DNA of 43,967 nt from a virus. This document shows positions 128-43,967 of the stretch, one piece after another (positions within the stretch are counted from its first letter, which is position 1; the number at the start of each line of letters is the position of its first letter). Made by a program: the position numbers and the translations under genes. The notes under the pieces are model-generated. The model saw only the letters and a program-made list of their open reading frames with translations. It searched no databases and was not told the origin of the DNA. Where the stretch lies: the IMG/VR virus record IMGVR_UViG_3300037473_000101, positions 1-43,967 of that record. One strand, written 5' to 3'.

Positions 128-392
128 GCTCAGCCGCATCAACAATGAAGGGAACTATGAGCCCGGAAATTGCTGCTGGGATACTTACCGCTCCCAGGCC
201 AATAACCGCCGTTCGTCTCGGCTGATCACATTCTCTGGTCGCACAATGACCATTTCCGAGTGGTCGCGAGAGATCGGCTGCGAGCACGACGTTTTATCCC
301 ATCGCCTACGTTCAGGGTGGCCCGTAGAGCGCGCCTTGACCGCGCCTATGCGGGTCACGTCCTACAGCCGATGCTTCAAGAAGGCAGCTTAG
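1..392 (+). CDS. HNH-type endonuclease-like protein, 3' portion (the gene starts at 43552 and crosses the circular junction)
   Basis: Reading frame is continuous with 43552-43967. Motifs ERCKRPGHKSYADYGGRGITVCERWESFENFLQDMGERP, NNEGNYEPGNCCW and QANNRR, plus a C-terminal helix-turn-helix-like ITFSGRTMTISEWSREIG. Stop TAG at 390-392. Confidence 0.75.
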   Translation, partial: RCKRPGHKSYADYGGRGITVCERWESFENFLQDMGERPKGRTLSRINNEGNYEPGNCCWDTYRSQANNRRSSRLITFSGRTMTISEWSREIGCEHDVLSHRLRSGWPVERALTAPMRVTSYSRCFKKAA

Positions 393-970
393 TGGCCGGC
401 GCCTTCAACACCTGGATGCCCCTCTACGTCGCGGACTACCTCCGCAAGACGACCAGGCTGACCACAGAGCAGCATGGGGCCTATTGCCTGCTCATCATGG
501 ATTACTGGGTCAACGGCGCCCCGCCGGACGATGACGTTGCTCTGGCCCAGATTGTCCGGCTCCCCCTCAACCAGTGGCGCAAGCACCGGCCCGTGATCCT
601 TTCTCTCCCCGGAGAGGCCTTCTCAGTCAAAGACGGGAAGTGGGTTCATGGCCGCATCGAGGATGAACGAATGAAAGCATTCGCCATCACCGAAGTGCGC
701 CGCAAGGGAGGGCAAGAGCGACAACGGCTCAGCAAACAGACAGCACATGCTGAAGCTCAAGCTACAGCAGGAAGGCCAGCAGAAAGCCAGCAGGCGGCGA
801 GACCTTCACATAGAACCATACATAAATCCTCTACCGAGCTTGTTGCCGCGCGCGACCCTTTGCCCTCTGTGGAGGCAGGGTCGTCGCGCGACGCTCAGGC
901 AATCGGCAGCTTCACCGGCGGGACTATCTCTCGGCTTTTGGAGCAAGCGGCTGGAGGGAAGAAGTTTTGA
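392..970 (+). CDS. DUF1376 (YdaU-like) family protein
   Basis: Motif WMPLYVADYLRKTTRLTTEQHGAYCLLIMDYW. GTG at 392 overlaps the upstream TAG by 1 nt and is preceded by GAAGG. Alternative ATG at 371. Confidence 0.7.
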   Translation: MAGAFNTWMPLYVADYLRKTTRLTTEQHGAYCLLIMDYWVNGAPPDDDVALAQIVRLPLNQWRKHRPVILSLPGEAFSVKDGKWVHGRIEDERMKAFAITEVRRKGGQERQRLSKQTAHAEAQATAGRPAESQQAARPSHRTIHKSSTELVAARDPLPSVEAGSSRDAQAIGSFTGGTISRLLEQAAGGKKF

Positions 971-2129: not shown

Positions 2130-2394
2130 GGGAAAATCCGGCAACCCTGGCGGCCGGGCTACTGAGAAGCTTTGGAGGGATTCGATCCTCAAAGCGGTGA
2201 AAGAACGCGGCGACAGGAAGGGCCCGCAGTTTATCGAAATGGCTGCAAAAGCGCTTGTCGCCGCTGCGGTGAGTGGGGATGTCCCAGCAATCAAGGAATT
2301 GGGCGACCGTCTTGATGGGAAATCAGCGCCGTCCCCGGAGGAGCGCGAGGACACCCGTAGCCTCATCGTCCAGCTGGTGAAGTACCGCCAGTGA
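2116..2394 (+). CDS. terS: Small terminase-like protein (DUF5681-type N-terminus)
   Basis: MRFAKGKSGNPGGR motif. Lies immediately upstream of terL and overlaps it. Confidence 0.65.
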   Translation: MRFAKGKSGNPGGRATEKLWRDSILKAVKERGDRKGPQFIEMAAKALVAAAVSGDVPAIKELGDRLDGKSAPSPEEREDTRSLIVQLVKYRQ

Positions 2395-3791
2395 GCCAAA
2401 TCATCCGCATCCCCAACAACTGGAACCCACGTCCGCATCAGCGGAAGCTCTGGGATTACCTGGAAGGCGGAGGGAAGCGAGCCGTCGAGGTGGCCCATCG
2501 TCGGTGGGGAAAGGATGATGTGGCCCTTCATTGGACGTGCAGCCAAGCCCACGAAAAGATTGCCTCATATTGGCATATGTTGCCACTCGCCAACCAGGCA
2601 CGTAAGGCAATTTGGAACGCGGTCAATCCTCACACCGGCATCCGGCGGATTGACGAGGCGTTCCCCCAGGCGCTTCGGGAGTCCACGCAAGATCACGAGA
2701 TGTTCATCCGCTTCAAGTGCGGGTCAACGTGGCAGGTTGTGGGCTCCGACAACTTCGCCGGTCTGGTCGGCTCCCCGCCCTATGGCGTGGTGTTCTCGGA
2801 GTGGTCGCTTGCCGATCCTGAGGCGTGGTCGCAGCTCATGCCGATTCTTAGGGAAAACAAAGGCTGGGCGATCTTCATCTATACGCCGAAAGGCAAGAAC
2901 CACGGCTGGTCCACCCTTAAGCATGCCGAGGCCAACCCGGGCACATGGTTTTGCGAGACGCAGCCGATCAGCGAAACCAAGATGCTGACGGACGAGGAGC
3001 TTGCGGAAGAACTCGGTCAGTACATTTCGCTCTATGGAGAGGACGATGGATGCGCATACTTTGATCAGGAGTATAATTGTTCGTTCAACGCGCCGCTCCT
3101 CGGTAGTTACTACGGATCGTATCTCGGGAAAGCCCGTGCTGAAGGGCGGATCGGTGACGTTCCCTATGAACCCGGCCTACCTGTCTACACTGGGTGGGAT
3201 CTGGGTCGATCTGACGACACAGCCATTTGGTTCGCCCAGCGACTAGGCGTCAACGTCCGGGTGATCGATTACTATCGCTCCTCCGGCCATACCATGGACC
3301 ATTACGCCAAGGTCCTTCAGAGTAAGCCTTACGCCTATGCGCGGCAGGGCCACATCCTGCCGCATGATGGCTCGAACGTGCTCATGCACGCGCCGGACTC
3401 CCTGGCAGCGCAGTTGATGAAGTTCTTCCCCGATGGCGTGACGGTCCTCCCAAACGATGATGTGGAAAAGGGCATCCACGCTGTGCGGCAACTATTGCCA
3501 GTCTGCCACTTCGATGAGGCCAAATGCTCTGACGGGCTTTCCGCTCTCGAATCCTACCATCGGGAATGGGACGACAAGCGCAAGATGTTCAAAGACGTGC
3601 CCTGTCACGACTGGGCATCGCACGCGGCGGATGGGTTCAGGTCTCTAGCTCAGGGCCTCCCAAAGTCCCTTCAGTACGTCCCGCCCAAAGAGCCCGGCCA
3701 CATCATCATCGGGGGCAAGTCCACCATGACCATGGATCAGCTCTGGGCACACCACGATCGCTCGCGTAGGGCCGGGAGAGGGCGTATATGA
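2391..3791 (+). CDS. terL: Terminase large subunit
   Basis: 466 aa. N-terminal ATPase-like segment PRPHQRKLWDYL...HRRWGKDD. Sits between the terS-like gene and the portal. GTG start overlaps the upstream stop. Confidence 0.85.
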   Translation: MSQIIRIPNNWNPRPHQRKLWDYLEGGGKRAVEVAHRRWGKDDVALHWTCSQAHEKIASYWHMLPLANQARKAIWNAVNPHTGIRRIDEAFPQALRESTQDHEMFIRFKCGSTWQVVGSDNFAGLVGSPPYGVVFSEWSLADPEAWSQLMPILRENKGWAIFIYTPKGKNHGWSTLKHAEANPGTWFCETQPISETKMLTDEELAEELGQYISLYGEDDGCAYFDQEYNCSFNAPLLGSYYGSYLGKARAEGRIGDVPYEPGLPVYTGWDLGRSDDTAIWFAQRLGVNVRVIDYYRSSGHTMDHYAKVLQSKPYAYARQGHILPHDGSNVLMHAPDSLAAQLMKFFPDGVTVLPNDDVEKGIHAVRQLLPVCHFDEAKCSDGLSALESYHREWDDKRKMFKDVPCHDWASHAADGFRSLAQGLPKSLQYVPPKEPGHIIIGGKSTMTMDQLWAHHDRSRRAGRGRI

Positions 3792-6241
3792 GCGATAACA
3801 CCAACCCTCCCGTCGTCTCCTCGAAAGACTTCAAAGGCCCGCAAGGTCAGGCCAAGCGATGGAAGGCCGAGGTCGATCTCTTCGAATCCCAACAGGCCAC
3901 GTTCTGGGAGCGCTGTGGGCGTATCGAGAAGCGCTATCGCAATGACACATGGCGGGATGCGGTCGATACCGGGGGTCTCTCGAATGACACCGAGGCAGGA
4001 CGCGGCTTTTCCCTGCTCTGGGCCAACCAACAGACACTCCAACCGATTGTCTATGCCCAGGAGCCGAAGGCCAACGTTCAGAGGCGGTTCAAGGACAGCG
4101 ACCCCGTTGCCCGTGTGGCGGGGATCATCATCGAACGGTGCCTGGACTTCTTTATCGATAAGCCAGATTTCGAGCAGACCACCCGCCAGGGCCGGGACGA
4201 TTACCTGCTCGTTGGCATGGGCGTGCAGTGGCGCCGCTATATCCCGCACATGGCGAACATCGCCAAGCGCGTGGGGGTAAAGCCGACCGAGGCTTTTGTG
4301 GACGACCAGGGCGTACAGATCACCAACGATCCCGCTGGATACAAGGGTGGATATTCCACCGAGGACGGAAGCGCGCTCAGCGACGAGGAGCGCAAGGGCG
4401 TTCAGATCGATGCGGAAGGTCCTTACATCGAACGGGCTGAACAGGCGATCAAGACCGAGGAAGTCTGCCGCGAGCATGTGAATTACCGTGACTTCGGCTG
4501 GTCTCCGGGCGCCAGGACATGGGCTGAAGCTCCGGCAGTATGGCGTAAGGTCTACATGACCAGAGACGCTCTCATAGACCGGTTCGGCAAGGAGAAGGGC
4601 GAGAAGGTCGAATTGGACTTCAAGCCCAAGAATGCCGATGGCAACGGGGTTGAGAAATCGTTCTTCAAGAAAGCGACGATTTACGAGATTTGGGACAAGG
4701 AGACCAAGAAAGTCCATTGGCTCGCCAAGCACTATGACGGCGATCTCCTAGATAGCCGGGACGACCCTCTCGGCATTGATGGGTTTTTCCCCTGCGCCCG
4801 GCCGCTCTTTGCCACGCAGACCACCGATCAAGTCACCCCTGTTCCTGAATATCTCCAGTACCAGGACCAGGCCGAGGAGATGGATAGGCTCACCCAAAAA
4901 GCCTACATCCTCATGGATGCGATCAAGATCCGCGGGCTTTATGCCGGGAATATTCCTGAAGTCCAAAGACTCCTTCAGGACAGCAGCAACCTGGACTTCA
5001 CCCCCGTTGCGGAATCGATTGTCGCCATGTCGTCGGGCGACCTCTCCAAGATGGTGTGGGTGTGGCCGATCAAGGAAGTCGTGGAAGCCCTTGTGGCTGT
5101 GTTGGATGCCAGGGAGCGGGTCAAGCAGGACTCTTACGAAATCACCGGCATTTCGGACATTATCCGGGGGGCAACCGACCCCAACGAAACCCTTGGCGCT
5201 CAGGAACTAAAGGCGCAGACCGGCGCGGTCCGGGTGAAAGATCGTCAGAGGGAAATGCAGCGGTGGATTCGCGACGGTCTCCGGATCGATGCGGATATCA
5301 TCATGAACCACTTCCAGCCCGAGACGATCGCGGACATTGCCGATCTCTCGTCCATCCCCGAGGCGGACTATCGCCAGATCAATGGTGAGTGGAGAGACCC
5401 GGAGACCATGAAGCCGGCCGGCCAGTTGCCGGGCGAGCAACAGCAGATGCCCGCACAGGGCATGCCGCCCGGCGCGCCGACTATGGGCCAGCAGCAGCCC
5501 ATGCCGCCTCTTCCAGGCGTCCCACAGGGGATTCCGATCCAAGGCCCGACCTTGGGCGAAGCAGCCATTATGCTGCTCAAGAACAAATCCCAGCGAAAGT
5601 TCCGCATCGATATCGAGACGGACTCCACGGTCCAGTTGGATCAGGCGCAGGAGAAGCAGGACCGCTCGGAGCTGGTCGCGTCCCTGACGCAGTTCTTTAC
5701 GGCTATTGCGCCGATTGTCGAAGCCCAGCCCGTCACGCTCCCCATGTTCCGGGAGATCCTGCTCTTTGCCGTCCGAGGCTTCAAGGCCGGGGCATCGCTT
5801 GAGGGCATGATCGAATCCACCATGGAGGCGCTGGGTAACCAGCCGCCGAAGCAGCAGGCCCCTGACCCGGCCGTGATCAAAGCTCAGGCTGAGATTGAGA
5901 ACACGAAACTGCAAGGCCAGATCGCCCAGCAACAGGCGCAGACCGAGCAGCGGCGCAGCCAGGTCGAGCTTCAGAACGACCAAGCCCGCATGGCGATGGA
6001 GCAGCAGCAGAGCCGGGAAGAACTTCAGCACGAGCGCGAGAAGAACCGGATGGAGATCATCAAGATTTTCACCGAGCTGATGGCCGAACGCGAGCGGGCA
6101 CAGCTTGACCATGCGGTTGCCCAGGGTAATGCCGCCAACCAGCAGCAGTTGGGCGAGATGAAGCTGGACCACGCCAAGCAGCTAGGCGCGATCAAGCAGA
6201 AGCAGGCAGCGAAACCCAAGCCGAATGGAGCGCAGAAGTGA
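3788..6241 (+). CDS. Portal protein (817 aa) with a P/Q-rich insert and a long Q-rich C-terminal coiled coil
   Basis: ATGA overlap with terL. Size and position fit a portal. Low-complexity stretch GQLPGEQQQMPAQGMPPGAPTMGQQQPMPPLPGVPQG. C-terminal tail rich in Q and E. Confidence 0.8.
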   Translation: MSDNTNPPVVSSKDFKGPQGQAKRWKAEVDLFESQQATFWERCGRIEKRYRNDTWRDAVDTGGLSNDTEAGRGFSLLWANQQTLQPIVYAQEPKANVQRRFKDSDPVARVAGIIIERCLDFFIDKPDFEQTTRQGRDDYLLVGMGVQWRRYIPHMANIAKRVGVKPTEAFVDDQGVQITNDPAGYKGGYSTEDGSALSDEERKGVQIDAEGPYIERAEQAIKTEEVCREHVNYRDFGWSPGARTWAEAPAVWRKVYMTRDALIDRFGKEKGEKVELDFKPKNADGNGVEKSFFKKATIYEIWDKETKKVHWLAKHYDGDLLDSRDDPLGIDGFFPCARPLFATQTTDQVTPVPEYLQYQDQAEEMDRLTQKAYILMDAIKIRGLYAGNIPEVQRLLQDSSNLDFTPVAESIVAMSSGDLSKMVWVWPIKEVVEALVAVLDARERVKQDSYEITGISDIIRGATDPNETLGAQELKAQTGAVRVKDRQREMQRWIRDGLRIDADIIMNHFQPETIADIADLSSIPEADYRQINGEWRDPETMKPAGQLPGEQQQMPAQGMPPGAPTMGQQQPMPPLPGVPQGIPIQGPTLGEAAIMLLKNKSQRKFRIDIETDSTVQLDQAQEKQDRSELVASLTQFFTAIAPIVEAQPVTLPMFREILLFAVRGFKAGASLEGMIESTMEALGNQPPKQQAPDPAVIKAQAEIENTKLQGQIAQQQAQTEQRRSQVELQNDQARMAMEQQQSREELQHEREKNRMEIIKIFTELMAERERAQLDHAVAQGNAANQQQLGEMKLDHAKQLGAIKQKQAAKPKPNGAQK

Positions 6242-6925: not shown

Positions 6926-8073
6926 TGGCTGAAGCAGCCCCGAGCATGGCGGACAGCATCCGCGCCGCGATGAAGGAAGTCAGCGGTAAGGCAGAGGAGG
7001 AAGCGCCGAATGAGGGTCAAGCAGGCGGTGGTGAGGGATCTCAGCCGGAAGCTGGCGAAGGAGCTGGCGAGAGTGAAGCGCAGGCGAGAGCGCGCGATGA
7101 GCGCGGGCGTTTCGCAGCCGGCGACGACAAGGCTCCAAAAGTTGATGGCGCAGACAAACCGCGCCCGACTCTCACTCTGAAGGAAAAGCCCAATGCCGCG
7201 GCGCAACCGGAACGCCCTGAAGGGCAGACAACGCCGCAAGCGCCGATTCGCCAGCCCGAAGCCAAGCACGTCTCGCCCCCTCCGCACTGGAACGGCTCGG
7301 CCAAAATAGACTGGAACAAGATCCCCGGCTCGCTCCGGGAGTCGATCGCCAAGGACTATGAGGAGGTGGGGAAGGTCCAGGCGCTGAACACCGTTCTTGC
7401 CCCCCATGCCGAAGTATTTGCCCGCGAGTTCGGCGGGACAGATCGGGCCTTGACACAAATTCTGGGGACTTGGGGCTATGCCCGGTCACAACCCCTTGCG
7501 TTTGTCCGCGAGTTCATGCAAAGATACGGTATCGACCCGCAGTCTCTTGGCGGGGTCGCACAGCCAGTTCAGGGCCAGCCCCAAGAACAGCTCGAAAACG
7601 ACCCCTACGCGCCGAGATTCCAGCGCATCGAAACGGCTCTGCAGCAGATAGCACAGCAGCCTGTCCTCCAGCAACAGCACCAGATCAACAGCGACCTTCA
7701 GACCTTCCAGACGGCCCTAAAGCCAGATGGATCGGTTGCTCACCCCTACTACAACGATGTCCGTGGACACATGGCAGCGTTGATGCAGACCCCGGCGATT
7801 ACCGAGGTGTTGCAGTCCAAGGGTGGAGCGGCGGCCTTAAAGGAAGCCTACGACCAGGCGTGTTGGGCGAATCCAAGTGTGCGGGATGCCATTCTCAAAG
7901 AACGGCAGGCGGCACAGGAGACGGAGCGGAGGCAGGCCATAGAGCGGGCACAGAGCGCGGCAGTCAGCGTGAGCGGAGCACCCGGCGTGAATGGGGCTCA
8001 GCCACTAGCAGCGCAATCCGTGTCCGACACTCTCCGGTCTGTCTACAGAGCAGCGAAAGGAGGTCGGGCCTAA
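6922..8073 (+). CDS. Scaffolding protein (putative)
   Basis: 383 aa, acidic and Q-rich low complexity, between the portal and the major capsid gene. Confidence 0.6.
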   Translation: MMAEAAPSMADSIRAAMKEVSGKAEEEAPNEGQAGGGEGSQPEAGEGAGESEAQARARDERGRFAAGDDKAPKVDGADKPRPTLTLKEKPNAAAQPERPEGQTTPQAPIRQPEAKHVSPPPHWNGSAKIDWNKIPGSLRESIAKDYEEVGKVQALNTVLAPHAEVFAREFGGTDRALTQILGTWGYARSQPLAFVREFMQRYGIDPQSLGGVAQPVQGQPQEQLENDPYAPRFQRIETALQQIAQQPVLQQQHQINSDLQTFQTALKPDGSVAHPYYNDVRGHMAALMQTPAITEVLQSKGGAAALKEAYDQACWANPSVRDAILKERQAAQETERRQAIERAQSAAVSVSGAPGVNGAQPLAAQSVSDTLRSVYRAAKGGRA

Positions 8074-8090: not shown

Positions 8091-9062
8091 ATGGCTTCAC
8101 CCGGACTCTCGGAAATCGTCACCACCACGCTTCGCAACCGCCAGCCCACCATCGCCGACAACGTTCTGAATAACAACGCCCTGCTTCTGAAGATGAAGCG
8201 CGGCGGGAACGTGCGCCCCTTCTCGGGCGGCCGGACCATGGTGGAACCGCTCTATTGGGCGGAAAACAGCACCTACACCCGGTACTCCGGCTATGACGTG
8301 CTGAACATCAACCCATCGGACGTGATCTCTGCGGCGGAATACGACCTGAAGCAGGCCGCCGTCGCCGTCTCGATCTCCGGCCTCGAGGAATACCAGAACC
8401 AGGGCGAAGAGGCGGTTCTCGACCTCCTCGGCTCCCGCATCGAGAACGCCGAGACCACCATGCAGAACGGCATTTCGTCCGATCTCTATTCGGACGGAAC
8501 CGCGGATGGCGGCAAGCAGATCGGCGGCCTTCAGCTCATCGTCGCCGACACTAACACCAACACGGTCGGCGGCATATCGGCCTCGACCTATTCCTTCTGG
8601 CGCAACGTCAGTTTTGACGCGACCACGGACGGCGGCGCGGCCGTTTCGCCGGCCAACATCGGCGATTACATGATGAGGGTCTATCAGCAGCTCAAGCGAG
8701 GTGTTGACGGCCCGAACCTCATCATCGCCGACAACAACTATTACCGCGCCTACTGGGAAAGCCTTACGGCGATCCAGCGCATCACGTCCGACAAGGACCT
8801 TGCGTCCCTGGGCTTCACCAACATCGATTTCATGGGCTCGCCTGTGGTCATGGACGGTGGAATCGGCGGCGCGTGCCCGACCAACCACATGTACTTCCTC
8901 AATACCAAGTACATGAAGTACCGCCCCGCCACGGGTCGGAACATGGACGCGATTGCGCCCGACCGCTTCAGCATCAACCAAGACGCCATGGTCAAACTGA
9001 TCGGCTGGATGGGCAACATGGTTGCCTCCGGCCGGAAGTTCCAGGGCGTCTTGAAGGATTAA
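8091..9062 (+). CDS. Major capsid protein
   Basis: 323 aa. N-terminus SEIVTTTLRNRQPTIADNVLNNNALL is typical of podophage HK97-fold capsid proteins. Position after the scaffold. Stop TAA at 9060-9062. Confidence 0.8.
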   Translation: MASPGLSEIVTTTLRNRQPTIADNVLNNNALLLKMKRGGNVRPFSGGRTMVEPLYWAENSTYTRYSGYDVLNINPSDVISAAEYDLKQAAVAVSISGLEEYQNQGEEAVLDLLGSRIENAETTMQNGISSDLYSDGTADGGKQIGGLQLIVADTNTNTVGGISASTYSFWRNVSFDATTDGGAAVSPANIGDYMMRVYQQLKRGVDGPNLIIADNNYYRAYWESLTAIQRITSDKDLASLGFTNIDFMGSPVVMDGGIGGACPTNHMYFLNTKYMKYRPATGRNMDAIAPDRFSINQDAMVKLIGWMGNMVASGRKFQGVLKD

Positions 9063-9083: not shown

Positions 9084-9614
9084 ATGAGCAGCTACTTCTC
9101 AATCGAAAACCGCGCCGGGGTTGGCTATGGCACCGGCTTTGCCGATGTCAGCTCGACGCAGGGTCCCTATGGCTTGGGAACGATTCTTCGAGCCAAGGAC
9201 AGCGCGACCACGGCTCTTGGTGTGGGCGAGTTCATCTATCTGCTCTGCACCTCCGCCACCGTCGTTGGCTCTCTGGTCACCTACGACCAGGCCCAGGGCC
9301 TCGCGGCGCCGGTCTCGACCACCACGGAACGTTCGGGCCGCCCGGTTGCCGTTGCCATGGCGGCGGCTGCTGCTGGTCAATACTTCTGGGGCCAAATCGA
9401 CGGCGTCGCGGTCATGGCAAAGGGCGTCGTGGACTTCCCCACGGCTTCCCCGATCTACCGCTCCGGCGTCACGGCGGGGTACATCACCGTCACGGCGGCC
9501 TCCGGAAACCAGGTCTTGGGAGCGGTGACGGCCAATTCGTCCTCGGTCTCCTCGACCACCTCGCTCATCAACGTGCAGATCAATCGTCCGCACCTCCAGG
9601 GCCAGATCTCTTAA
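9084..9614 (+). CDS. Capsid cement/decoration-like protein (DUF2190-like pattern)
   Basis: 176 aa directly after the capsid gene. G/A/V-rich beta pattern RPVAVAMAAAAAGQYFWGQIDGVAVMAKG. In the same frame as the capsid gene, separated by TAA plus 7 sense codons. Confidence 0.55.
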   Translation: MSSYFSIENRAGVGYGTGFADVSSTQGPYGLGTILRAKDSATTALGVGEFIYLLCTSATVVGSLVTYDQAQGLAAPVSTTTERSGRPVAVAMAAAAAGQYFWGQIDGVAVMAKGVVDFPTASPIYRSGVTAGYITVTAASGNQVLGAVTANSSSVSSTTSLINVQINRPHLQGQIS

Positions 9615-10453
9615 TGGACCTGGACGCCATCCACATCGACTTTGAAGCGGGGGAGGGCGTCGCCTCGGTGGCGCCCTCCCTTACCCCGCTTCAGATCAAT
9701 GTCACCTGCAACACCAGCGGGGACATCACCCGGGAACACGTGAAGGCGAACAGCGCGCGGCCCATCCCTGTCGTTACCGTTCTGGAAGAAAACACCCGCC
9801 ACGCCGTCATTGTCGGGGGTGGCCCGTCGCTCAAAACCAACTGGACTGAAATCCTCGGCTGGATCGCGAGAGGGGCAGATGTGTTCGCGCTCAACGGCGC
9901 GGCGGAGTTCCTGAACGATAGGGGCGTTCTTCCGACCTACCAAGTCGTGGTGGACCCCCGGGAGACCAATGTCTCTTTGGTCGGCTTGGCGAGAAGCTAT
10001 CTCATCGCCTCGCAGTGCCACCCCGCCGTGTTCGAAGTCGCTCCGGCTCATCGGGTTGGGCTTTTCCACATGTACGGCTCGGCCAACGGATTGGTGGACG
10101 GGACCCTGATCGGCGGGGATGTGACCGTGGGTCTCGTCGCCCCCAATCTCGCCTACACCCTCGGTTACCGACAGATCCATCTCTATGGCTACGACTCCTC
10201 GTATGCGGATGGCGAGCACCACGCTTACCCGCAGGACCAGTCCGAGCAGGAAAGCAAGCGGCTGGAAGTGTTCACTATCGTCAACGGGGAAAAGCAGCCG
10301 TTCACGACGAATTTCGCGATGGCGAAGCAAGCAGAATTGTTTCCGAAGACCATGCAAACGCTCTGCGAGGCCGGCGCCGTCATCACTGTGCATGGAACGG
10401 GACTCATCCCGTCCATCGCTCAATCAATGCTGAAAGCCAAAGCGGCGGAATAG
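9614..10453 (+). CDS. DUF115 / Maf (MptE-like) Rossmann-fold protein, putative glycosyltransferase
   Basis: ATG at 9614 overlaps the upstream TAA. Motifs AVIVGGGPSL, ADVFALNGAAEFLNDRGVLPTYQVVVDPRE and IGGDVTVGLVAPNLAYTLGYRQIHLYGYDSSYADGEHHAY. The listed 526-aa ORF from 8873 is an upstream extension through the capsid gene. Confidence 0.6.
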   Translation: MDLDAIHIDFEAGEGVASVAPSLTPLQINVTCNTSGDITREHVKANSARPIPVVTVLEENTRHAVIVGGGPSLKTNWTEILGWIARGADVFALNGAAEFLNDRGVLPTYQVVVDPRETNVSLVGLARSYLIASQCHPAVFEVAPAHRVGLFHMYGSANGLVDGTLIGGDVTVGLVAPNLAYTLGYRQIHLYGYDSSYADGEHHAYPQDQSEQESKRLEVFTIVNGEKQPFTTNFAMAKQAELFPKTMQTLCEAGAVITVHGTGLIPSIAQSMLKAKAAE

Positions 10454-10461
10454 GAGATCCA

Positions 10462-11151
10462 ATGGAGATCGACGGCAAGATTGCGTACTCCCTCGGGGAG
10501 AAGGACGCCAACGGCAAGCCTCTCGGAACCCATGTGGTGTTCTGGTGGGGCGTCGATAAGAACAACTTCGAGACCGAGCACCAGAAGCGCCCGGTCTTCG
10601 ACAAGGTTCTTTACGCGGAAATCCGTACCCCCGCCGCGAAGATGCAGATTCACAAGGTCGTGGTCCGCCGGGTCTTCGCCAACGGCAACATCCGCGAGCC
10701 GCTGTCCGGCCGGAGGATCGAAGACCAGCCGGAACAGACATGGGCGGAAGTCCTCGCCCCGCAGCTCGAAGCCTTCGAAAAGGGCACGCTGGCGCCGGAC
10801 AACGAAACCCCGTTGGAGACGTGGCCGAAGCTGGACGTGGCTCAGGTCGCGAGCCTTCAGGCGTCGGGGATTCACTCCCTCGAGCAGTTGGCGGGCTGCC
10901 CGGATGCGAAGATCCATCTTCTCGGGATCGGCGGCGCCACCCTGAAGAAGCAGGCGCAGAACTTCCTCGACCTCAACAAGGGCAAGGACCACACCGACGA
11001 GCTGATTGCTCAGAATGCCAACCTGCAAGCGCAGATCGACGCGATGCGCGAGCAGATGGCGAAGCTCATCCCCTCGGCAGAGCAGGCGGCGGAAGTCGCC
11101 GCGGCCGATCCGGTGAAACGCGGGCCTGGTCGCCCGCCCAAGGCAGCCTAA
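10462..11151 (+). CDS. Structural-module protein with a helix-hairpin-helix-like segment and a C-terminal AT-hook-like tail
   Basis: ATG at 10462 after GGAGATCC. ASLQASGIHSLEQLAG, a coiled coil, and the terminal KRGPGRPPKAA. Confidence 0.6.
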   Translation: MEIDGKIAYSLGEKDANGKPLGTHVVFWWGVDKNNFETEHQKRPVFDKVLYAEIRTPAAKMQIHKVVVRRVFANGNIREPLSGRRIEDQPEQTWAEVLAPQLEAFEKGTLAPDNETPLETWPKLDVAQVASLQASGIHSLEQLAGCPDAKIHLLGIGGATLKKQAQNFLDLNKGKDHTDELIAQNANLQAQIDAMREQMAKLIPSAEQAAEVAAADPVKRGPGRPPKAA

Positions 11152-11161
11152 GGAGCAGATC

Positions 11162-11527
11162 ATGGCACTTGCGAAAGAACTCATGGGCCTCGGCCTCCCT
11201 AACTTCCAAGCTGTGGCGCTGGGGTTCGGCCCCGGTGCGACGGGCCTCACCGCTGCCGGCACGGGCCAGAGCGATGCTCTTGCCCTGGTGGATGGCGTCA
11301 ACGTCTTCTCGACCGTCGCGTCCGGAGCTGGCGCGCGCCTTCCCGTCGCGGGGGCGAAGGGGCCGGTCGCCGTCTGCAATGGTGGAGCGAATGCCTGTCT
11401 GGTCTACCCGGCCACGGGCCAGAACATCAACGGTGGCTCGGCCAACGGCAGCTTTTCGGTGACCAACGCCAAGACGGCGATCTTCATCCCCTATGAAACC
11501 GGTTGGGTGGCGATCCTGAGCGCGTGA
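11162..11527 (+). CDS. Hypothetical virion-module protein (121 aa)
   Basis: ORF with an ATG start in the co-oriented structural block. Confidence 0.6.
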   Translation: MALAKELMGLGLPNFQAVALGFGPGATGLTAAGTGQSDALALVDGVNVFSTVASGAGARLPVAGAKGPVAVCNGGANACLVYPATGQNINGGSANGSFSVTNAKTAIFIPYETGWVAILSA

Positions 11528-11530
11528 TGC

Positions 11531-12262
11531 ATGTCCCTTCTCACCGTCGTCCAGTCCGCATGCCGTAGGCTTGCGCTTCCCGTGCCGACCGCCGTTGTGT
11601 CGTCCACGGATGCGCAAGTCCTCCAGCTATGGGAACTGGCGAACCAGGAAGGGACGGAGCTTTCCGAACGTTATGACTGGTCGATTCTGGTCCGGCAGAC
11701 CAGCTTCGCCACAGTGGCGGCAGAGGATCAGCCGGCGAGTGTCCCCAGCGATTTCGGACACTACGTCATCGACAGCATGTGGAACCGCACCACCAAGCGG
11801 AAGTGCTTCGGCCCCCTGACCTCGGCTGACTGGCAACAGGTTCTTTCGTATCCGATCTACACATCCATCAATCCCGTTTTCCGGATGATCCAGCCCGGCG
11901 GGACGATTGACGGCTATGTGAAACTGATCCCGACGCCCCCGGCGGGACAGAGCATCTATTACGAATACGCCATCAAGAACTGGGCAGCGACCACCGGCGG
12001 CAGCTCCCCGACGCTCTCCTCCTATGAAGCCGACACCGATTTTTCGGTGGTCGATGAAAAGTTGGTGGCGAAGGGGCTGTTGTGGCGGTTCAAAGCCGCG
12101 AAGGGGTTCGACTACGGCCAGGACTTCGCCAACTACGAGGCGGATGTAGCAAGGGCACAGGCTCAGGACGGTGGAGGAAAGCCCAAGCTCAATCTCGTGG
12201 GTGGCCTTGGCGTGCAGGACATCTGGCCTGCCAACATCCCGATCGGGAATTGGCCGTCATGA
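11531..12262 (+). CDS. Neck/adaptor-like structural protein (putative)
   Basis: 243 aa between the head genes and the large neck protein. ATGA overlap with the next gene. Confidence 0.55.
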   Translation: MSLLTVVQSACRRLALPVPTAVVSSTDAQVLQLWELANQEGTELSERYDWSILVRQTSFATVAAEDQPASVPSDFGHYVIDSMWNRTTKRKCFGPLTSADWQQVLSYPIYTSINPVFRMIQPGGTIDGYVKLIPTPPAGQSIYYEYAIKNWAATTGGSSPTLSSYEADTDFSVVDEKLVAKGLLWRFKAAKGFDYGQDFANYEADVARAQAQDGGGKPKLNLVGGLGVQDIWPANIPIGNWPS

Positions 12263-26784: not shown

Positions 26785-26964
26785 CTTACCCTCCCTTAAG
26801 AATGCTGCGGGCCGGTTGGATTCAAACCAACGTGAGTCCCGATCCCTCGGGTCTCCGGGCGCGTTGCCCGGCGCATTCGTTCGCTCTGCCACAGTCCGCA
26901 GCATTGACCGGCGAACCGATCCCGAGTATTGTACGGACACGCTGACTCAGACGCAAGGGCAATC

Positions 26965-28012: not shown

Positions 28013-28245
28013 TCATAGAGCTTCATCGAGACGGGTATGGCGCGGGTAGCGGTTCTGCATTAGCAACTGTCGGGCACCGCAAAAGCAGCGCCGCCGATAA
28101 TCCTCCTCAACCCAGTTATGTACATGGCGCGGACTTAAGGCTCGCCGGAATAGGGTAGTGCAATCGGGGTGGATGGCGTAAATAGCTGGTTCGCCTCGAA
28201 GCGCTTCGCTGCGGCATCCTGGGTCGATAGCTGGAACTTAGCCAC
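28013..28245 (-). pseudogene. Small HTH-like gene split between two frames (apparent -1 frameshift)
   Basis: GGAGG plus GTG at 28245 opens MAKFQLSTQDAAAKRFEANQ..., which stops at TAA 28135-28137. A start-less overlapping frame continues AIYAIHPDCTTLFRRALSPRHVHNWVEEDYRRRCFCGARQLLMQNRYPRH to TGA 28013-28015. Confidence 0.35.
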
Positions 28246-28266
28246 GCAGTCCTCCAATTTCAGAGT

Positions 28267-28303
28267 CTACTTGTACAAGTAGCGGCCCTACTTGATCAAG
28301 TAG
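28267..28303. promoter_or_regulatory. Two tandem perfect 16-bp palindromes (operator pair)
   Basis: CTACTTGTACAAGTAG at 28267-28282 and CTACTTGATCAAGTAG at 28288-28303, with centres 21 bp apart, just upstream of the minus-strand gene starting at 28245. Confidence 0.6.
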
Positions 28304-28489
28304 GGGTGTTATTTGATGGGTAAATTGATAAAAATACTTGACGCTAAGCATCAAATGGCGTCACCGGCCATGTGTGGTCGATTAAGGAAATTGTGGCGCT
28401 GGCGGATGCCGCCTATGCCGCGCCGAAGTCGCGCGGACCGTATAAGAAGCGGGCGCAGGGGTAGATTGCTGGATCCCTGTGAAGAAAGT

Positions 28490-28576
28490 TGTGGATAACG
28501 TGTGGGTAACTCCTGTGGATAACTATAGATACGGTATATCCACAGAATTTAGCACCAAATGTTGATTTGTGGATCG
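28490..28576. promoter_or_regulatory. Cluster of five DnaA-box-like 9-mers (putative replication origin or DnaA-controlled region)
   Basis: TGTGGATAA at 28490-28498, TGTGGGTAA at 28501-28509, TGTGGATAA at 28514-28522, ATATCCACA at 28536-28544 (opposite orientation) and TGTGGATCG at 28568-28576. Consensus is TTATCCACA / TGTGGATAA. Confidence 0.6.
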
Positions 28577-28588
28577 CCAGGGATCTTG

Positions 28589-28605
28589 CTTCTCGAATCG
28601 AGAAG
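28589..28605. promoter_or_regulatory. 17-bp perfect palindrome centred on a GANTC (CcrM-type) site
   Basis: CTTCTCGAATCGAGAAG, with GAATC at 28595-28599. Confidence 0.5.
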
Positions 28606-28612
28606 AGGCATG

Positions 28613-28641
28613 AATCAAAACACCCCGCTTTTGGCGGGGTG
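28613..28641 (-). terminator. Rho-independent terminator-like hairpin (functional on the minus strand)
   Basis: CACCCCGC-TTTTG-GCGGGGTG at 28621-28641. On the minus strand it is followed by TTTTGATT. Confidence 0.45.
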
Positions 28642-28647
28642 CTCTGT

Positions 28648-28747
28648 GGAAGTGTGGCAGAGTGGTTTATCGCAGCGGTCTTTAAAACCGTCGGGGGAAC
28701 GCCCGTCAAAGTCAGTACCCCCGTGGGTTCGAATCCCACCACTTCCG
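28648..28747 (+). tRNA. Type II (Ser-like) tRNA with anticodon UUA, a putative ochre suppressor, and an unusually long variable region
   Basis: Acceptor GGAAGTG/CACTTCC and discriminator G. T arm GTGGG-TTCGAAT-CCCAC. Anticodon arm GCGGT-CTTTAAA-ACCGT with U33 and A37, so positions 34-36 are TTA. Variable region is 31 nt. The D stem has one A.C mismatch. CCA is not encoded (CCG follows). Confidence 0.7.
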
Positions 28748-28758
28748 CCGTCTACCAG

Positions 28759-28790
28759 GGGCGGTCCCTTCGGGGGCCGCCCTTTCTCTT
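28759..28790 (+). terminator. Rho-independent terminator downstream of the tRNA
   Basis: GGGCGGTCCC-TTCG-GGGGCCGCCC (10-bp stem with one G.U pair, TTCG tetraloop) followed by TTTCTCTT. Confidence 0.7.
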
Positions 28791-28922
28791 ATCCTAGACT
28801 CACAGCAACCCGTTAACGCAAGGTTAATCCGAGTCGGTCAATGCCGAATCTTGAGCCCTTTCGACTCGCGTTTCAAGGCGGATCTCGTCAGAATTTGACG
28901 AAATCTGACGGATTTCGCCGGA

Positions 28923-29096
28923 ATGCCCGACAAACCAAAAGAAATACGCTTCACCGTTTCTGCGACTCTGCACGCTTATCTAGAGCGGCTTGCCGAGAAG
29001 ACCGTGCTTGGCAAAACGGCGAACGATGTGGCGCAGCAAATCCTTACTCAGCAACTCGCGCTGATGCGGCAGGAAGACTATTCCGAGAAAGTATAA
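28923..29096 (+). CDS. Ribbon-helix-helix-like small protein (57 aa)
   Basis: MPDKPKEIRFTVSATLHAYLERLAEKTVLGKTANDVAQQILTQQL fits a strand-helix-helix pattern. Repeated TGACG/CGTCA elements lie at 28886-28910 just upstream. Under the ORF-track cutoff. Confidence 0.4.
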   Translation: MPDKPKEIRFTVSATLHAYLERLAEKTVLGKTANDVAQQILTQQLALMRQEDYSEKV

Positions 29097-29299: not shown

Positions 29300-29656
29300 C
29301 TAGTGGCCGATGATTTCCGCTATCCGCCGCAGCAGCTCCGGGGCAGGCTCGAACCACTCGCCACGGAGCCGGTAGCGGGTAAATTCCCGGTGCAGGGCGG
29401 CTTCCCGCAGCCTGCCGCCATGGACGGCCCCGAGGAGCGTCAGGGCCTCATGGTGGACGCCCTGGATCAGCCGCATCCGGTCGCGGGGATCGATGGCGAT
29501 GCCGATCTTGATCGGCCCGCTGGCGCTCTGGATGAAATAGACTAGCTTGGCGCGGCGCACCTTGCGCCCGGCCGCCAAGTCCTCGCGCTCAAGGCCCTTA
29601 TAGGCTCGCTCGTACTCTCGGGTGAGCAGGGCCTCCGGGTGCTTCCTTCTTTCCAT
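29300..29656 (-). CDS. T5orf172 / MUG113 (GIY-YIG-like) domain protein
   Basis: KLVYFIQSASGPIKIGIAIDPRDRMRLIQ...GGRLREAALHREFTRYRLRGEWF. ATG at 29656 chosen within ORF 29300-29737. Confidence 0.65.
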   Translation of the reverse strand: MERRKHPEALLTREYERAYKGLEREDLAAGRKVRRAKLVYFIQSASGPIKIGIAIDPRDRMRLIQGVHHEALTLLGAVHGGRLREAALHREFTRYRLRGEWFEPAPELLRRIAEIIGH

Positions 29657-29804
29657 AATCACCACACACTTGGTTTCTGGTCGGTGTGAGCCGTTTCGTC
29701 TACCTGTAGGAGCGAACTGCACAGGAACGATAATCACAGGGTAAATTGACTAAGCAGCTTAGAATCTTGCGACTCTTACAATGTTGCGGGTGCGGTCAAA
29801 AACG

Positions 29805-29843
29805 CGTTCGCATAATGTATATTAGTTGAAGATTATGGAAAAT
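29805..29843. other. dif-like XerC/XerD recombination site
   Basis: CGTTCGCATAA-TGTATA-TTAGTTGAAGA followed by TTATGGAAAAT. Positions 29809-29824 (CGCATAATGTATATTA) are identical to the core of E. coli dif, GGTGCGCATAATGTATATTATGTTAAAT. Confidence 0.6.
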
Positions 29844-29893
29844 ATCAACATCTAGTAGGTCTTTAACATTGTTTCCTATTTACAGGTGAGGGG

Positions 29894-33726: not shown

Positions 33727-34208
33727 CGGACTTCCGCCATCCTTCCTGTTGCCTCATAGAAGTTCGTCACGAGCTGATCCCACTTCTTCCCTGCAACCCT
33801 GTCTTCGCTGAGTTCGGATCGGGAGGTGACGCCGCAGAGACGGCGCACGGCTTCGGCGGCCTCCGTCACGTCCGGGAGCGGATGAGCGACGCTCAGCCAT
33901 AGACAAAAGCCGTCGTCATTGCAGAGGATGCCTGCCTGTTGTGCTCTCGAAATCTGGTGGAAAGGAGTTCGCGGCTTCCCGGGCTCGCCGCGCTGTTGAC
34001 CAGTAGGCAAGGCGGGCGATGCACCGCTCCCGGGACTGGCTTTCCCTGTCTCTGCATCGTAGGGGACCATCGCCACGCCGAACGCTTGACCGAGAGGAGC
34101 GGCGGCAAGGTCGGCCCAATCGCTATCCGGACCGATCTCAAGGGTGATGTAAAATCCCTTCGATGAGCGGCGGAAGGCGTTCAGCTTGGCGTCGAGTTGG
34201 ATGGGCAT
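33723..34208 (-). CDS. Hypothetical protein (161 aa)
   Basis: ORF with an ATG start, adjacent to ssb. Confidence 0.6.
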   Translation of the reverse strand: MPIQLDAKLNAFRRSSKGFYITLEIGPDSDWADLAAAPLGQAFGVAMVPYDAETGKASPGSGASPALPTGQQRGEPGKPRTPFHQISRAQQAGILCNDDGFCLWLSVAHPLPDVTEAAEAVRRLCGVTSRSELSEDRVAGKKWDQLVTNFYEATGRMAEVR

Positions 34209-34582
34209 TACCAGGGCTGCTCCTCTTGCTTCTCGCCCTTGCCGTCGAGCATGACCAGCTCACCGCGGAACTGCTGCAATACGACCTCCGTCGTGTATTG
34301 GTCGTGCCCGTCCTTCTCCCACTTGCGAGTTTGCAGGGAGCCCTCCAGGTAGACCTTGGAACCCTTCTTCAGGTATTTCTCGGCGACTTCGCTGAGCCGG
34401 TCATTGAAGATTACGACGCGGTGCCACTCCGTCTTTTCCTTTCGGTCGCCGGAGTTTTTGTCCTTCCAGCTTTCAGATGTCGCGATGGAAAGGTTGGCGA
34501 TCTTCTTGCCGTCCTGCGTCGTGCGGATCTCCGGGTCACGGCCCAGATTGCCCACGAGGGTCACTTTGTTCACGCTGCTCAT
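34208..34582 (-). CDS. ssb: Single-stranded DNA-binding protein
   Basis: [42 protein letters not shown]...EWHRVVIF...[17 protein letters not shown], with an acidic C-terminal tail ending EEQPW. Confidence 0.9.
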
Positions 34583-40230: not shown

Positions 40231-40284
40231 GCCCCATTGTGGCGCGATTCTGACGTGCATCATATCGCTAAGACCGCACCGATG

Positions 40285-40334
40285 TCGCGCCAAACCCTCT
40301 TGACACTTGGTGCGAAGATCGCAATATTGGCGAC
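40285..40334 (+). promoter_or_regulatory. Sigma70-like promoter and overlapping operator for the Cro-like gene, predicting a leaderless mRNA
   Basis: TTGACA at 40300-40305, a 17-nt spacer, and AATATT at 40323-40328. ATG at 40335 lies 7 nt after the -10 element. Inverted repeat TCGCGCCAA (40285-40293) / TTGGTGCGA (40307-40315) brackets the -35 element. Confidence 0.5.
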
Positions 40335-42205: not shown

Positions 42206-42336
42206 CCCTGCTCGCCGCCATTCTGCTCCTCCAGATCCCTCTCGGCATCTTCTTCGGTCGGTGCATACGGGTGGGTTCCAACCGCTCAACCTCTTCTCAT
42301 GTCCTCCAGTTCCGCAGGGGAAGGAGATTCGGATGA
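42202..42336 (+). CDS. Small hydrophobic-N-terminus ORF (44 aa), uncertain
   Basis: ATGA overlaps at both ends. MTLLAAILLLQIPLGIFFG... Confidence 0.3.
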   Translation: MTLLAAILLLQIPLGIFFGRCIRVGSNRSTSSHVLQFRRGRRFG

Positions 42337-42614
42337 ACTCAGATTTCTGGACTGACCGCCGTGTTCGCATTCTCACCAGCATGTGGGAAGCAGAGAAGAG
42401 CGCCAGCGTTATCGCCGGAGCGCTCAACTGCACTCGGGATATGGTAATCGGGAAGGCGCATCGGCTGGGCCTTAAGGCTCGCCTGTCGCCGATCAAAGCT
42501 GACGCCGTGCTGACCGAGCAGCGGCGCGCCGCAACAAGGAAAAAGCGCCGTTACTATCTCGTCAACCAGCGTCGCGAATCCATGGGCCTCCCTCCACTCC
42601 CGAGGGAAGCATGA
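42333..42614 (+). CDS. GcrA-like cell-cycle regulator homologue (short, 93 aa)
   Basis: WTDRRVRILTSMWEAEKSASVIAGALNCTRDMVIGKAHRLGLKAR matches the GcrA N-terminal DNA-binding domain. ATG at 42333 follows GGAGATTCGG. Confidence 0.75.
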   Translation: MNSDFWTDRRVRILTSMWEAEKSASVIAGALNCTRDMVIGKAHRLGLKARLSPIKADAVLTEQRRAATRKKRRYYLVNQRRESMGLPPLPREA

Positions 42615-42787
42615 CCGACCAACAGAAAGCCTCCCAACGCCTGCACTACGCCATCAACAGAGCAGCTGATGAATACGGGCGCCCGTTACCAGCAGGGCAA
42701 GCGATGTTCATAGCACAGAAGCTTATGCAGGACTTGCCCACGATAGTGGAGGCCATTGCCAACTCAGCGCAGGGGAAGGCGACATGA
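42611..42787 (+). CDS. Hypothetical protein (58 aa)
   Basis: ATGA coupling at both ends. Under the ORF-track cutoff. Confidence 0.45.
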   Translation: MTDQQKASQRLHYAINRAADEYGRPLPAGQAMFIAQKLMQDLPTIVEAIANSAQGKAT

Positions 42788-43555: not shown

Positions 43556-43967
43556 GCCAACGAGACCAGATTGTCCGAGCCCTGAAGCGGGGTGATTCAC
43601 TCGGCCCCTACATCATTATAGGCGACGCGCCGCGGTCCCCGGCTGGACATCGCAGGCTCCGAGTTCAATGCACGGTATGTGGTGGGGAGAAAGTCACCCA
43701 GGTCCACAACGCAGCAAGATCGAAATCTTGCGGGTGTCTGACGAAGCAGATCCTGCGGCAGGCAAGGACCGTTCACGGGCATTCGAAGGGGAGGGGAGGC
43801 AATGGGAGCCCTACCTATAGTTCATGGCATTCGATGCACGAGCGCTGCAAGCGCCCTGGGCACAAGTCCTACGCCGACTATGGCGGCCGGGGGATCACGG
43901 TTTGTGAACGCTGGGAGTCGTTTGAGAATTTCCTTCAGGACATGGGCGAACGCCCGAAGGGGCGCAC
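43552..43967 (+). CDS. HNH-type endonuclease-like protein, 5' portion (continues at position 1 of the circle, ending at 392)
   Basis: ATG at 43552 in an ATGA overlap. No stop to the window end. RVQCTVCGGEKVTQVHNAARSKSCGC...TYSSWHSMHERCKRPGHKSYADYGGRGI. Confidence 0.75.
   Translation, partial: MSQRDQIVRALKRGDSLGPYIIIGDAPRSPAGHRRLRVQCTVCGGEKVTQVHNAARSKSCGCLTKQILRQARTVHGHSKGRGGNGSPTYSSWHSMHERCKRPGHKSYADYGGRGITVCERWESFENFLQDMGERPKGR
43841..43967. repeat. Terminal direct repeat, right copy (identical to 1-127)
   Basis: Base-by-base identity with 1-127. Confidence 0.97.

Follow-up and report, generated by a model that had tools for sequence, protein, structure and literature searches.

Can a phage without a recognisable helicase begin its replication at a small group of binding sites for the initiator of its host? 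The question is raised by a non-coding locus in the IMG/VR virus record IMGVR_UViG_3300037473_000101, which we analysed over positions 1 to 43,967 (the window, that is, the whole stretch of 43,967 nucleotides). At this locus five DnaA boxes lie between an AT-rich tract and a GANTC-centred palindrome, and an earlier reading of the letters (hereafter the original prediction) took the arrangement for a phage origin that recruits host DnaA. We find that the phage, 44 kb in size, has an alphaproteobacterial host, and that its cluster of boxes for the host initiator DnaA is real and non-random; judged by its boxes, the site is almost certainly a target for host DnaA. To the reading that the cluster is a host-DnaA-dependent replication start or helicase-loading site, the most likely of those considered, we assign a probability of about 0.35, roughly one chance in three. 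Sequence alone does not tell an origin apart from a promoter under DnaA control or from a DnaA sink, and the roles of origin, promoter, sink and passenger DNA, each of which is weighed below, are not mutually exclusive.

By direct reading, all five boxes are present where they had been predicted. Three of them stand head to tail on the plus strand (28490–28522) in the order perfect, one mismatch, perfect, with start-to-start distances of 11 and 13 bp: the exact copies of TGTGGATAA at 28490–28498 and 28514–28522 enclose the middle box TGTGGGTAA at 28501–28509. They are followed by an inverted box with one mismatch (ATATCCACA at 28536–28544, which reads TGTGGATAT on the minus strand) and by a weak plus-strand box with two mismatches (TGTGGATCG at 28568–28576), which presumably resembles a 'G-box'. 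Measured against the consensus TTATCCACA, the 87-bp span holds two exact boxes, two with a single mismatch and one with two. Exact boxes are absent from the rest of the window, ~0.15 being expected from base composition, and a stretch of 55 bp takes in four boxes with one mismatch or none; three or more such boxes within 60 bp arose in 0 of 3,000 first-order Markov sequences. A comparable cluster was absent both from ~630 kb of other phage loci and from 694 kb surrounding 80 genes of the DUF1376 family, to which a candidate replication gene of this phage belongs, and none of those 80 loci has one inside 5 kb.

The boxes at 28514 and 28536 also form an inverted repeat with 15-nt arms, which in single-stranded DNA would fold into a modestly stable hairpin (z = -1.8). 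Because these two boxes can pair, the cluster could instead comprise DnaA-box-like iterons for a phage protein, or a single-stranded primosome-assembly hairpin of the 'A-site' type that serves lagging-strand priming. Phage proteins can target such boxes, as indicated by contig L278, on which a 158-residue protein (11148–11624) consists of the DnaA C-terminal DNA-binding domain (PF08299) alone and is encoded two genes after a DUF1376 gene 49% identical to that of the window. However, scans of the window gave no Bac_DnaA_C protein, the hairpin is weak at the z value given, and the simplest reading of two exact 9-bp consensus matches is that they are sites for host DnaA, so that we consider iterons or a priming hairpin very improbable.

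Around the cluster is a gap of 904 bp without genes (28019–28922), larger than any other non-coding gap of the genome; the two transcriptional arms converge on it, and its GC content is 0.53–0.55, compared with ~0.60 for the whole genome. Genes were called on the window's own contig and on the identical Logan contig L163; the L163 calls leave 28019–28922 empty and Rfam gives only a tRNA gene at 28648–28747, in agreement with the earlier claim that no convincing open reading frame (ORF) covers the region. The AT-rich tract (28306–28345; 73% AT over 40 bp) is likewise where it had been placed, 5' of the TGTGGATAA repeats. Among the 40-bp stretches of the genome only one, at 29812 with 80% AT, is richer in A and T, and a nearest-neighbour ranking puts the tract second, and the box region itself (28511–28570) third, in order of lowest duplex stability. 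The richest stretch (29812–29851, within 29657–29893) lies upstream of a T5orf172/MUG113 gene and probably belongs to that gene's own promoter region. Before the AT tract stand two perfect 16-bp palindromes, CTACTTGTACAAGTAG and CTACTTGATCAAGTAG, of the form CTACTTGNNCAAGTAG and 21 bp apart (28267–28303). They have the appearance of an operator pair and are the sole two matches to this form in the window; the pair had 0 matches in viral and genome collections. Next to the pair, on the minus strand, is a possible ORF of 36 codons (28135–28245) that has a GGAGGA ribosome-binding site.

If the cluster is an origin, DnaA-ATP would occupy both perfect boxes first and would then spread cooperatively across the phased middle box to the inverted and weak boxes. 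The duplex would open in the box region (28511–28570) or in the AT tract, aided by transcription from the tRNA promoter discussed below, and the host helicase would then be loaded, while a CtrA box and GANTC sites farther along the gap would tie origin firing, or the nearby promoters, to the host cell cycle. In favour of an origin are the lack of replisome and loader genes, the position in the largest gap with its low duplex stability, the AT tract on the canonical side, and the exchange of an integrase/attP slot for the cluster in a phage with a cI/cro-like switch. The relatives closest by their DUF1376 protein hold an integrase and attP at this place, and the window yielded no integrase; the site may therefore be a plasmid-type maintenance origin rather than a lytic one.

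DnaA-box arrays in other phages

A scan of IMG/VR for three closely spaced boxes returned at least 120 viral contigs (L006–L125), and 256 phage records in GenBank carry similar arrays. Among the IMG/VR matches listed, to which the following counts refer, GC content ranges from 25 to 66%, the arrays comprise 3–5 or more perfect boxes with a period of 11–12 bp, and nearly all are intergenic. Their flanking genes encode small and large terminases, RusA, YqaJ, helicases, methylases, and the capsid and Rep proteins of microviruses; since these neighbours are phage genes, with no dnaA or dnaN, contamination by host oriC was rejected as an explanation. The arrays often adjoin promoter-like sequences and show no association with tRNA genes. 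A DNA unwinding element (DUE) on the canonical 5' side was not seen, the AT excess being modest and larger on the 3' side. In 12 of 53 complete contigs, by hand count, the array falls in the outer 5% at either contig end. The GenBank arrays are found in T5-like phages (in the injection-stop region), in KP34-like and Arthrobacter phages near the genome ends, in Microviridae and in a T7-like Berlinvirus, where the array lies between TerL and the early genes. Compared with typical phage arrays, which have 3–5 or more perfect copies at a period of 11–12 bp, the direct boxes of the window have spacers of 2 and 4 bp and a variant middle copy. In T5, the DnaA-box pairs of the injection-stop region are not the origin (Davison, bioRxiv 10.1101/866236); beyond that preprint and Ori-Finder-style predictions, we found almost no discussion of phage DnaA-box arrays in the literature.

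As such arrays are present both in phages with their own replisome and in rolling-circle microviruses, a general role other than that of an origin is indicated for them. One candidate role is that of a DnaA sink or modulator of the datA, DARS or Bacillus subtilis cluster type: hundreds of high-affinity sites on the accumulating phage copies would draw DnaA off the host origin or alter its nucleotide state, host initiation and DnaA-controlled genes would be reprogrammed, and phage replication would start elsewhere. The wide distribution of the arrays and their nearly always intergenic position in IMG/VR are consistent with this explanation. Beside those arrays, however, the cluster in the window is short and imperfect, and no datA-type IHF site lies near its boxes. 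The other arrays also tend toward genome or contig ends; the window assembly is circular (positions 1–127 are identical to 43841–43967, giving a unit genome of 43,840 bp). We know of no experiment in any phage that supports titration, and we regard a sink as an unlikely explanation of this cluster.

The adjoining tRNA gene and its promoter

The tRNA gene downstream of the boxes (28648–28747, plus strand) matches Rfam family RF00005 with 52.4 bits and folds as a cloverleaf with a long variable arm of 30 nt, a discriminator G and the anticodon loop CUUUAAA; it was missed by ARAGORN. The loop gives the anticodon UUA, and the tRNA would therefore read the UAA stop codon as a putative ochre suppressor. 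Its long variable arm, its G discriminator and its nearest annotated relatives, which are phage tRNA-Ser genes, point to a Ser-type tRNA. A GC-rich hairpin with an 8-bp stem stands directly 5' of the gene (28621–28641, plus strand), and an intrinsic terminator follows it (28757–28784, plus strand). A pattern scan of metagenomes returned 97 contigs (L178–L274) with class-II tRNAs carrying the same loop, among them a phage contig (L269) with a 50% identical TerL; the long-arm Ser-type tRNAs are up to ~85% identical to that of the window, and an equivalent hairpin of different sequence is found in every homologous long-arm tRNA(UUA) locus. In IMG/VR a tRNA pattern had 0 matches. A tRNA-Arg of 94 nt called by ARAGORN at 26806–26899 (minus strand) is without an Rfam match, overlaps called protein genes and is probably a false positive. 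The major capsid gene (8091–9062, plus strand) ends in TAA, and an in-frame 176-codon ORF (9084–9614) starts seven codons on; the UUA tRNA could enable a read-through capsid fusion, although a shared frame by itself has a 1 in 3 chance.

The promoter of the tRNA gene was placed by alignment with contig L184, the leader of which is homologous: where L184 has CTTGAC-N18-CCATAAGA followed by the hairpin and the tRNA, the window has CTTGCT-N18-CATGAATC in the same columns. The likely promoter thus occupies 28585–28615 (plus strand), with CTTGCT at 28585–28590 as the −35 hexamer and CATGAAT at 28609–28615 as the −10 element. With the promoter so placed, all five boxes lie at approximately −46 to −132 from the tRNA start, the weak box being nearest at approximately −54 to −46. 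The palindrome of the original prediction is present as claimed, a perfect 17-bp sequence CTTCTCGAATCGAGAAG (28589–28605) with its GAATC centre at 28595–28599. Given this promoter, the palindrome takes up the spacer and part of the −35 hexamer, and it would act in tRNA transcription, as an operator or as a methylation-sensitive element, and not in an origin.

These positions bear directly on the alternative that the original prediction had itself named, DnaA-dependent control of the adjacent tRNA. DnaA bound at approximately −46 to −132 would activate the weak tRNA(UUA) promoter or, as an oligomer, silence it; the supply of suppressor tRNA would then follow the replication or growth state of the host, and the spacer palindrome would add an input from methylation, GcrA or a repressor. 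The geometry fits: in the L184 alignment every box is on the upstream side of the start and no more than 135 bp from it. Both hexamers deviate from the consensus, as is usual for promoters that depend on an activator, the terminator next to the 3' end of the tRNA marks a short independent transcription unit, and arrays elsewhere, among the matches listed, often adjoin promoter-like sequences and have the greater AT excess on their 3' side. DnaA is also a known transcription factor (review PMC8203912). The comparative data do not fit: a DnaA cluster within 400 bp upstream was found in 0 of the 97 metagenomic tRNA(UUA) loci. The boxes are therefore an addition specific to this phage, and the idea that they form a conserved part of the tRNA unit was rejected, the IMG/VR arrays being equally free of tRNA association. 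Moreover, the promoter comes from the alignment and was not called by a sigma-70 consensus scan, and the DnaA-regulated promoters known to us use fewer than five boxes. On balance, control of the tRNA by DnaA is possible though doubtful, and about as likely as an origin.

The tRNA gene is followed by a gene for a 57-residue protein (28923–29096, plus strand, from the L163 gene calls), which looks ribbon-helix-helix-like by eye and has no Pfam, PHROG or PDB sequence match. A tRNA(UUA) gene and a 57- or 58-residue gene recur in the same order and orientation on the unrelated contig L262 (7614–8016), beside an IS1595-type transposase and non-phage genes, and as the pair recurs together, the two genes look like a mobile module. 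The segment from 28.26 to 29.1 kb might accordingly be passenger DNA, acquired from a host or a mobile element along with the tRNA and the small gene, its DnaA, CtrA and GANTC sites being left over from the source. The GC content of the region, which is below that of the rest of the genome, the module beside the transposase in L262 and the homing-endonuclease-like T5orf172/MUG113 gene at the border of the region would all suit such an origin of the DNA; in addition, the slot is that of integrase and attP in relatives, and aberrant excision could, by analogy with lambda bio, have swapped in host DNA. However, L262 is without boxes, neither the operator pair nor the array with its spacing occurs in any alphaproteobacterial representative genome (the array has 12 genome matches, 0 of them alphaproteobacterial and 0 homologous), and a perfect phased cluster would be unlikely to last without selection. 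Passenger DNA is, for these reasons, quite improbable.

Cell-cycle sites, replication genes and relatives

The gap that holds the DnaA boxes gathers sites for three alphaproteobacterial cell-cycle factors, DnaA, CtrA and CcrM/GcrA. Between the tRNA terminator and the 57-residue gene stands the only perfect CtrA-type box of the genome (TTAACGCAAGGTTAA, of the form TTAA-N7-TTAA, at 28813–28827; ~0.11 expected per genome), with GANTC sites on its flanks, and it may mark a CtrA-dependent promoter of the 57-residue gene. Eight GANTC sites lie in 28595–28968 (at 28595, 28612, 28731, 28797, 28831, 28846, 28863 and 28964), and eight in 400 bp is attained in 0.5% of random placements (genome-wide p ~0.005). 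Over the whole window GANTC is depleted, with 108 sites versus 158, and GATC occurs 288 times versus 158 expected from composition; a single GANTC site is found between 30452 and 35350. The phage also encodes a GcrA-like factor, as had been proposed, in the form of a 93-residue protein (42333–42614, plus strand; PF07750, E=6.6e-12, 46.5 bits). The match covers profile positions 3–80 of 155, that is, the N-terminal DNA-binding domain only, and the protein may be a competitor of host GcrA for methylated GANTC sites and not an activator there. An ORF at 260–970, considered as the GcrA-like gene by analogy of position with Brucella phages, was rejected in its favour. Taken together, the CtrA box, the GANTC cluster and the GcrA-like gene give the predicted coupling to the cell cycle of an alphaproteobacterium more weight than the original prediction could know.

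The genome is laid out in two arms. The plus-strand arm runs from 40335 across the circular junction to 28018 and the minus-strand early arm from 40263 to 29300, and they diverge at a cI/cro-like switch (40264–40334) with weak P22_Cro/YdaS and HTH_31 matches and a TTGACA-17-AATATT promoter; this divergent switch suggests temperate ancestry, on weak matches only. The structural module is P22/Tb-like (TerL, 2391–3791; portal, 3788–6241). Bradyrhizobium phage ppBjS10J-1 shows 53% identity to the major capsid protein and 46% to TerL, and the portal is ~32% identical to those of Brucella Tb-like podoviruses. The early arm encodes a single-stranded DNA-binding protein (SSB, 34208–34582), a Rad52-type annealase, Gp157, DUF968, a C5 methylase and the GIY-YIG-related T5orf172/MUG113 protein (29300–29656, minus strand), the gene of which borders the gap region. 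The genes of the plus-strand arm include those for the GcrA-like protein, for DUF1064 and, immediately ahead of the terminase genes, for DUF1376.

The original prediction had held that no phage-encoded initiator or helicase is recognisable. As to the replisome this stands, since no helicase, loader, primase or polymerase appeared in any Pfam or PHROG scan of the window, but it has to be qualified by the DUF1376/YdaU-like protein encoded at 371–970 (plus strand; PF07120, E=6e-17), which falls in PHROG 'primosomal protein' families and is a candidate replication organiser. Its AlphaFold (AF2) model, with a predicted local distance difference test score (pLDDT) of 77, has a winged-helix core; the fold has no significant PDB match (best E ~0.1), with DnaD-N among the top entries as a weak likeness. 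A tandem repeat, CAGCAGGAAAGC (11–12 bp, 2.6 copies, 765–794), lies in the low-complexity linker of the DUF1376 gene and is a possible alternative origin site by analogy with contig L178, which has DnaA boxes at the equivalent position. There (9660–9759), as on L268, three palindromic TGTGGATAAC-TTATCCACA pairs lie in the DUF1376 gene just past the domain, much as the origin of lambda lies inside its initiator gene (gene O); the L178 pairs encode repeated 'VDNLS' peptides, and a TerS-like gene comes next. These pairs indicate that DnaA boxes can be coupled to a DUF1376 replication module. The broader idea that DUF1376 modules generally carry DnaA boxes was rejected, given a cluster in 0 of 80 loci and its absence from the part of the 75% identical relatives that was seen (30 of 40.6 kb), L178 and L268 being exceptions.

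The closest DUF1376 proteins, 75% identical, are encoded on three 41-kb metagenome contigs (L359, L360 and L361) that have only the genes of the early plus-strand operon in common with the window. The convergent junction of these contigs (13424–14640 on L359) is occupied by genes for a GIY-YIG protein and a tyrosine integrase and by an attP-like gap of ~190 bp, so the box/tRNA region of the window occupies the slot that the integration module holds in these relatives. The Brucella Tb-like phages, which are laid out in the same two arms, possess genes for a primase/polymerase and a helicase but no DnaA cluster. Conservation, which had been suggested as a check, is lacking: no relative shares the region, for which IMG/VR, the representative genomes and the protein collection gave no homologue. 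Searches of IMG/VR with T5orf172, a 109-residue protein and DUF551 led to distant or non-syntenic loci only. Among 5.8 billion proteins none is a close homologue of a 392-residue early protein, and the other contig that carries this protein is identical to the window.

A number of these observations weigh against an origin. The AT tract is separated from the boxes by 145 bp of 64%-GC DNA without a credible ORF, and it overlaps an operator/promoter-like region. Neither DnaA-trio repeats nor 13-mers were seen beside the first box on reading the sequence, no IHF site lies near the boxes (the consensus WATCAANNNNTTR matches the window once, at 2289), and the GC skew does not turn at 28.5 kb (its cumulative curve has the minimum at 42,658 and the maximum at 7,148), although a skew turn is a weak criterion for small phage genomes. 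The box site sits where transcription converges. In addition, the phage has a candidate replication protein of its own in DUF1376, together with SSB and the Rad52-type annealase, and no rep gene and no parA or parB partition gene were found in any scan. The phage is a singleton in this region, so that the element is conserved in no relative; in the relatives with 75% identical DUF1376, the 30 of 40.6 kb seen contain no DnaA cluster, which indicates that a closely related DUF1376 module works without one. Finally, as many phages with DnaA-box arrays replicate without DnaA, such arrays cannot in general be origins. The prediction of an origin has therefore held in part: the boxes, the AT tract and the palindrome are real and have gained the CtrA, GANTC and GcrA links, and against them stand the DUF1376 candidate, the lack of trios, IHF site and skew turn, and the absence of conservation.

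It is tempting, as a long shot, to combine several of these roles. The phage might be an integrase-less temperate phage that lives as a mini-chromosome, an oriC mimic having replaced integrase and attP and being wired into the host through the CtrA box, through GANTC sites methylated by CcrM and read by GcrA, and through the phage's own GcrA-like protein; the same platform would gate an ochre-suppressor tRNA-Ser(UUA), which possibly extends the TAA-ended capsid protein.

Comparison with known systems

If the boxes fire replication, the phage would be a replicon that relies on the host initiator, without an adjacent rep gene, in the slot that its relatives use for integration. This would offer a simple path from integrative to plasmid-like lysogeny, coupled to the alphaproteobacterial cell cycle. 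Should they gate the tRNA instead, this would be, to our knowledge, the first case of DnaA controlling a phage suppressor tRNA. The frequency of phased arrays across diverse phages also raises the question of why DnaA-independent phages collect DnaA sites.

In E. coli oriC, the arrays have tight head-to-tail box spacing and the DUE lies on the 5' side of box R1. The window resembles it in the tight head-to-tail spacing of its consensus boxes (11 and 13 bp) and in the AT tract on the 5' side of TGTGGATAA. It resembles Caulobacter Cori in its GANTC sites, its CtrA box and a nearby active promoter, which in the window is the putative tRNA promoter; in contrast to Cori, where several CtrA sites overlap the DnaA sites, it has one CtrA box, 240 bp off and past the tRNA. 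Unlike the chromosomal origins in general (E. coli oriC, Caulobacter Cori and Sinorhizobium oriC), the site has five boxes only, an AT tract 145 bp off, no 13-mers or trios and no skew switch, and it is phage-borne, at a convergence of transcription.

Closer parallels may be sought among mobile replicons. In P1 oriR, RK2 oriV, pSC101 and F, a few DnaA boxes by AT-rich DNA recruit host DnaA and DnaB, with iterons and a rep gene adjacent. The window shares with them the few consensus boxes by AT-rich DNA on a mobile replicon, but no iterons or rep gene adjoin its boxes, and the only candidate, DUF1376, is ~16 kb away. Mycobacteriophages with extrachromosomal prophages carry the segments responsible in the integrase slot of their relatives. 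These segments, non-coding or of RepA type, permit a temperate phage to persist without integration (PMC7157519). In contrast to such prophage origins, where initiation is RepA- or RNA-based, DnaA boxes are present here, and no partition genes were seen.

The arrays of T5-like, T7-like and KP34-like phages and of Microviridae are similar in having consensus boxes 2–3 bp apart in non-coding phage DNA. They differ in being longer or more regular (3–5 or more perfect copies, or eight boxes in fixed pairs) and in lying often in terminal repeats or at leading ends, in phages with their own replication machinery. The DnaA-regulated promoters of dnaA, nrdAB and Caulobacter gcrA (review PMC8203912) likewise have boxes up to ~130 bp upstream of a weak promoter; compared with these, the window has more boxes and a tRNA as the target, and the homologous tRNA loci are without boxes. 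As in datA, DARS and the Bacillus clusters (PMC5835720), a non-origin cluster of 3–5 high-affinity boxes could modulate DnaA availability, although here the cluster lacks an IHF site and is phage-borne, so that its dosage would rise with replication. DnaA-box clusters on mobile replicons are thus known, and the cluster of this phage is a variation on that theme.

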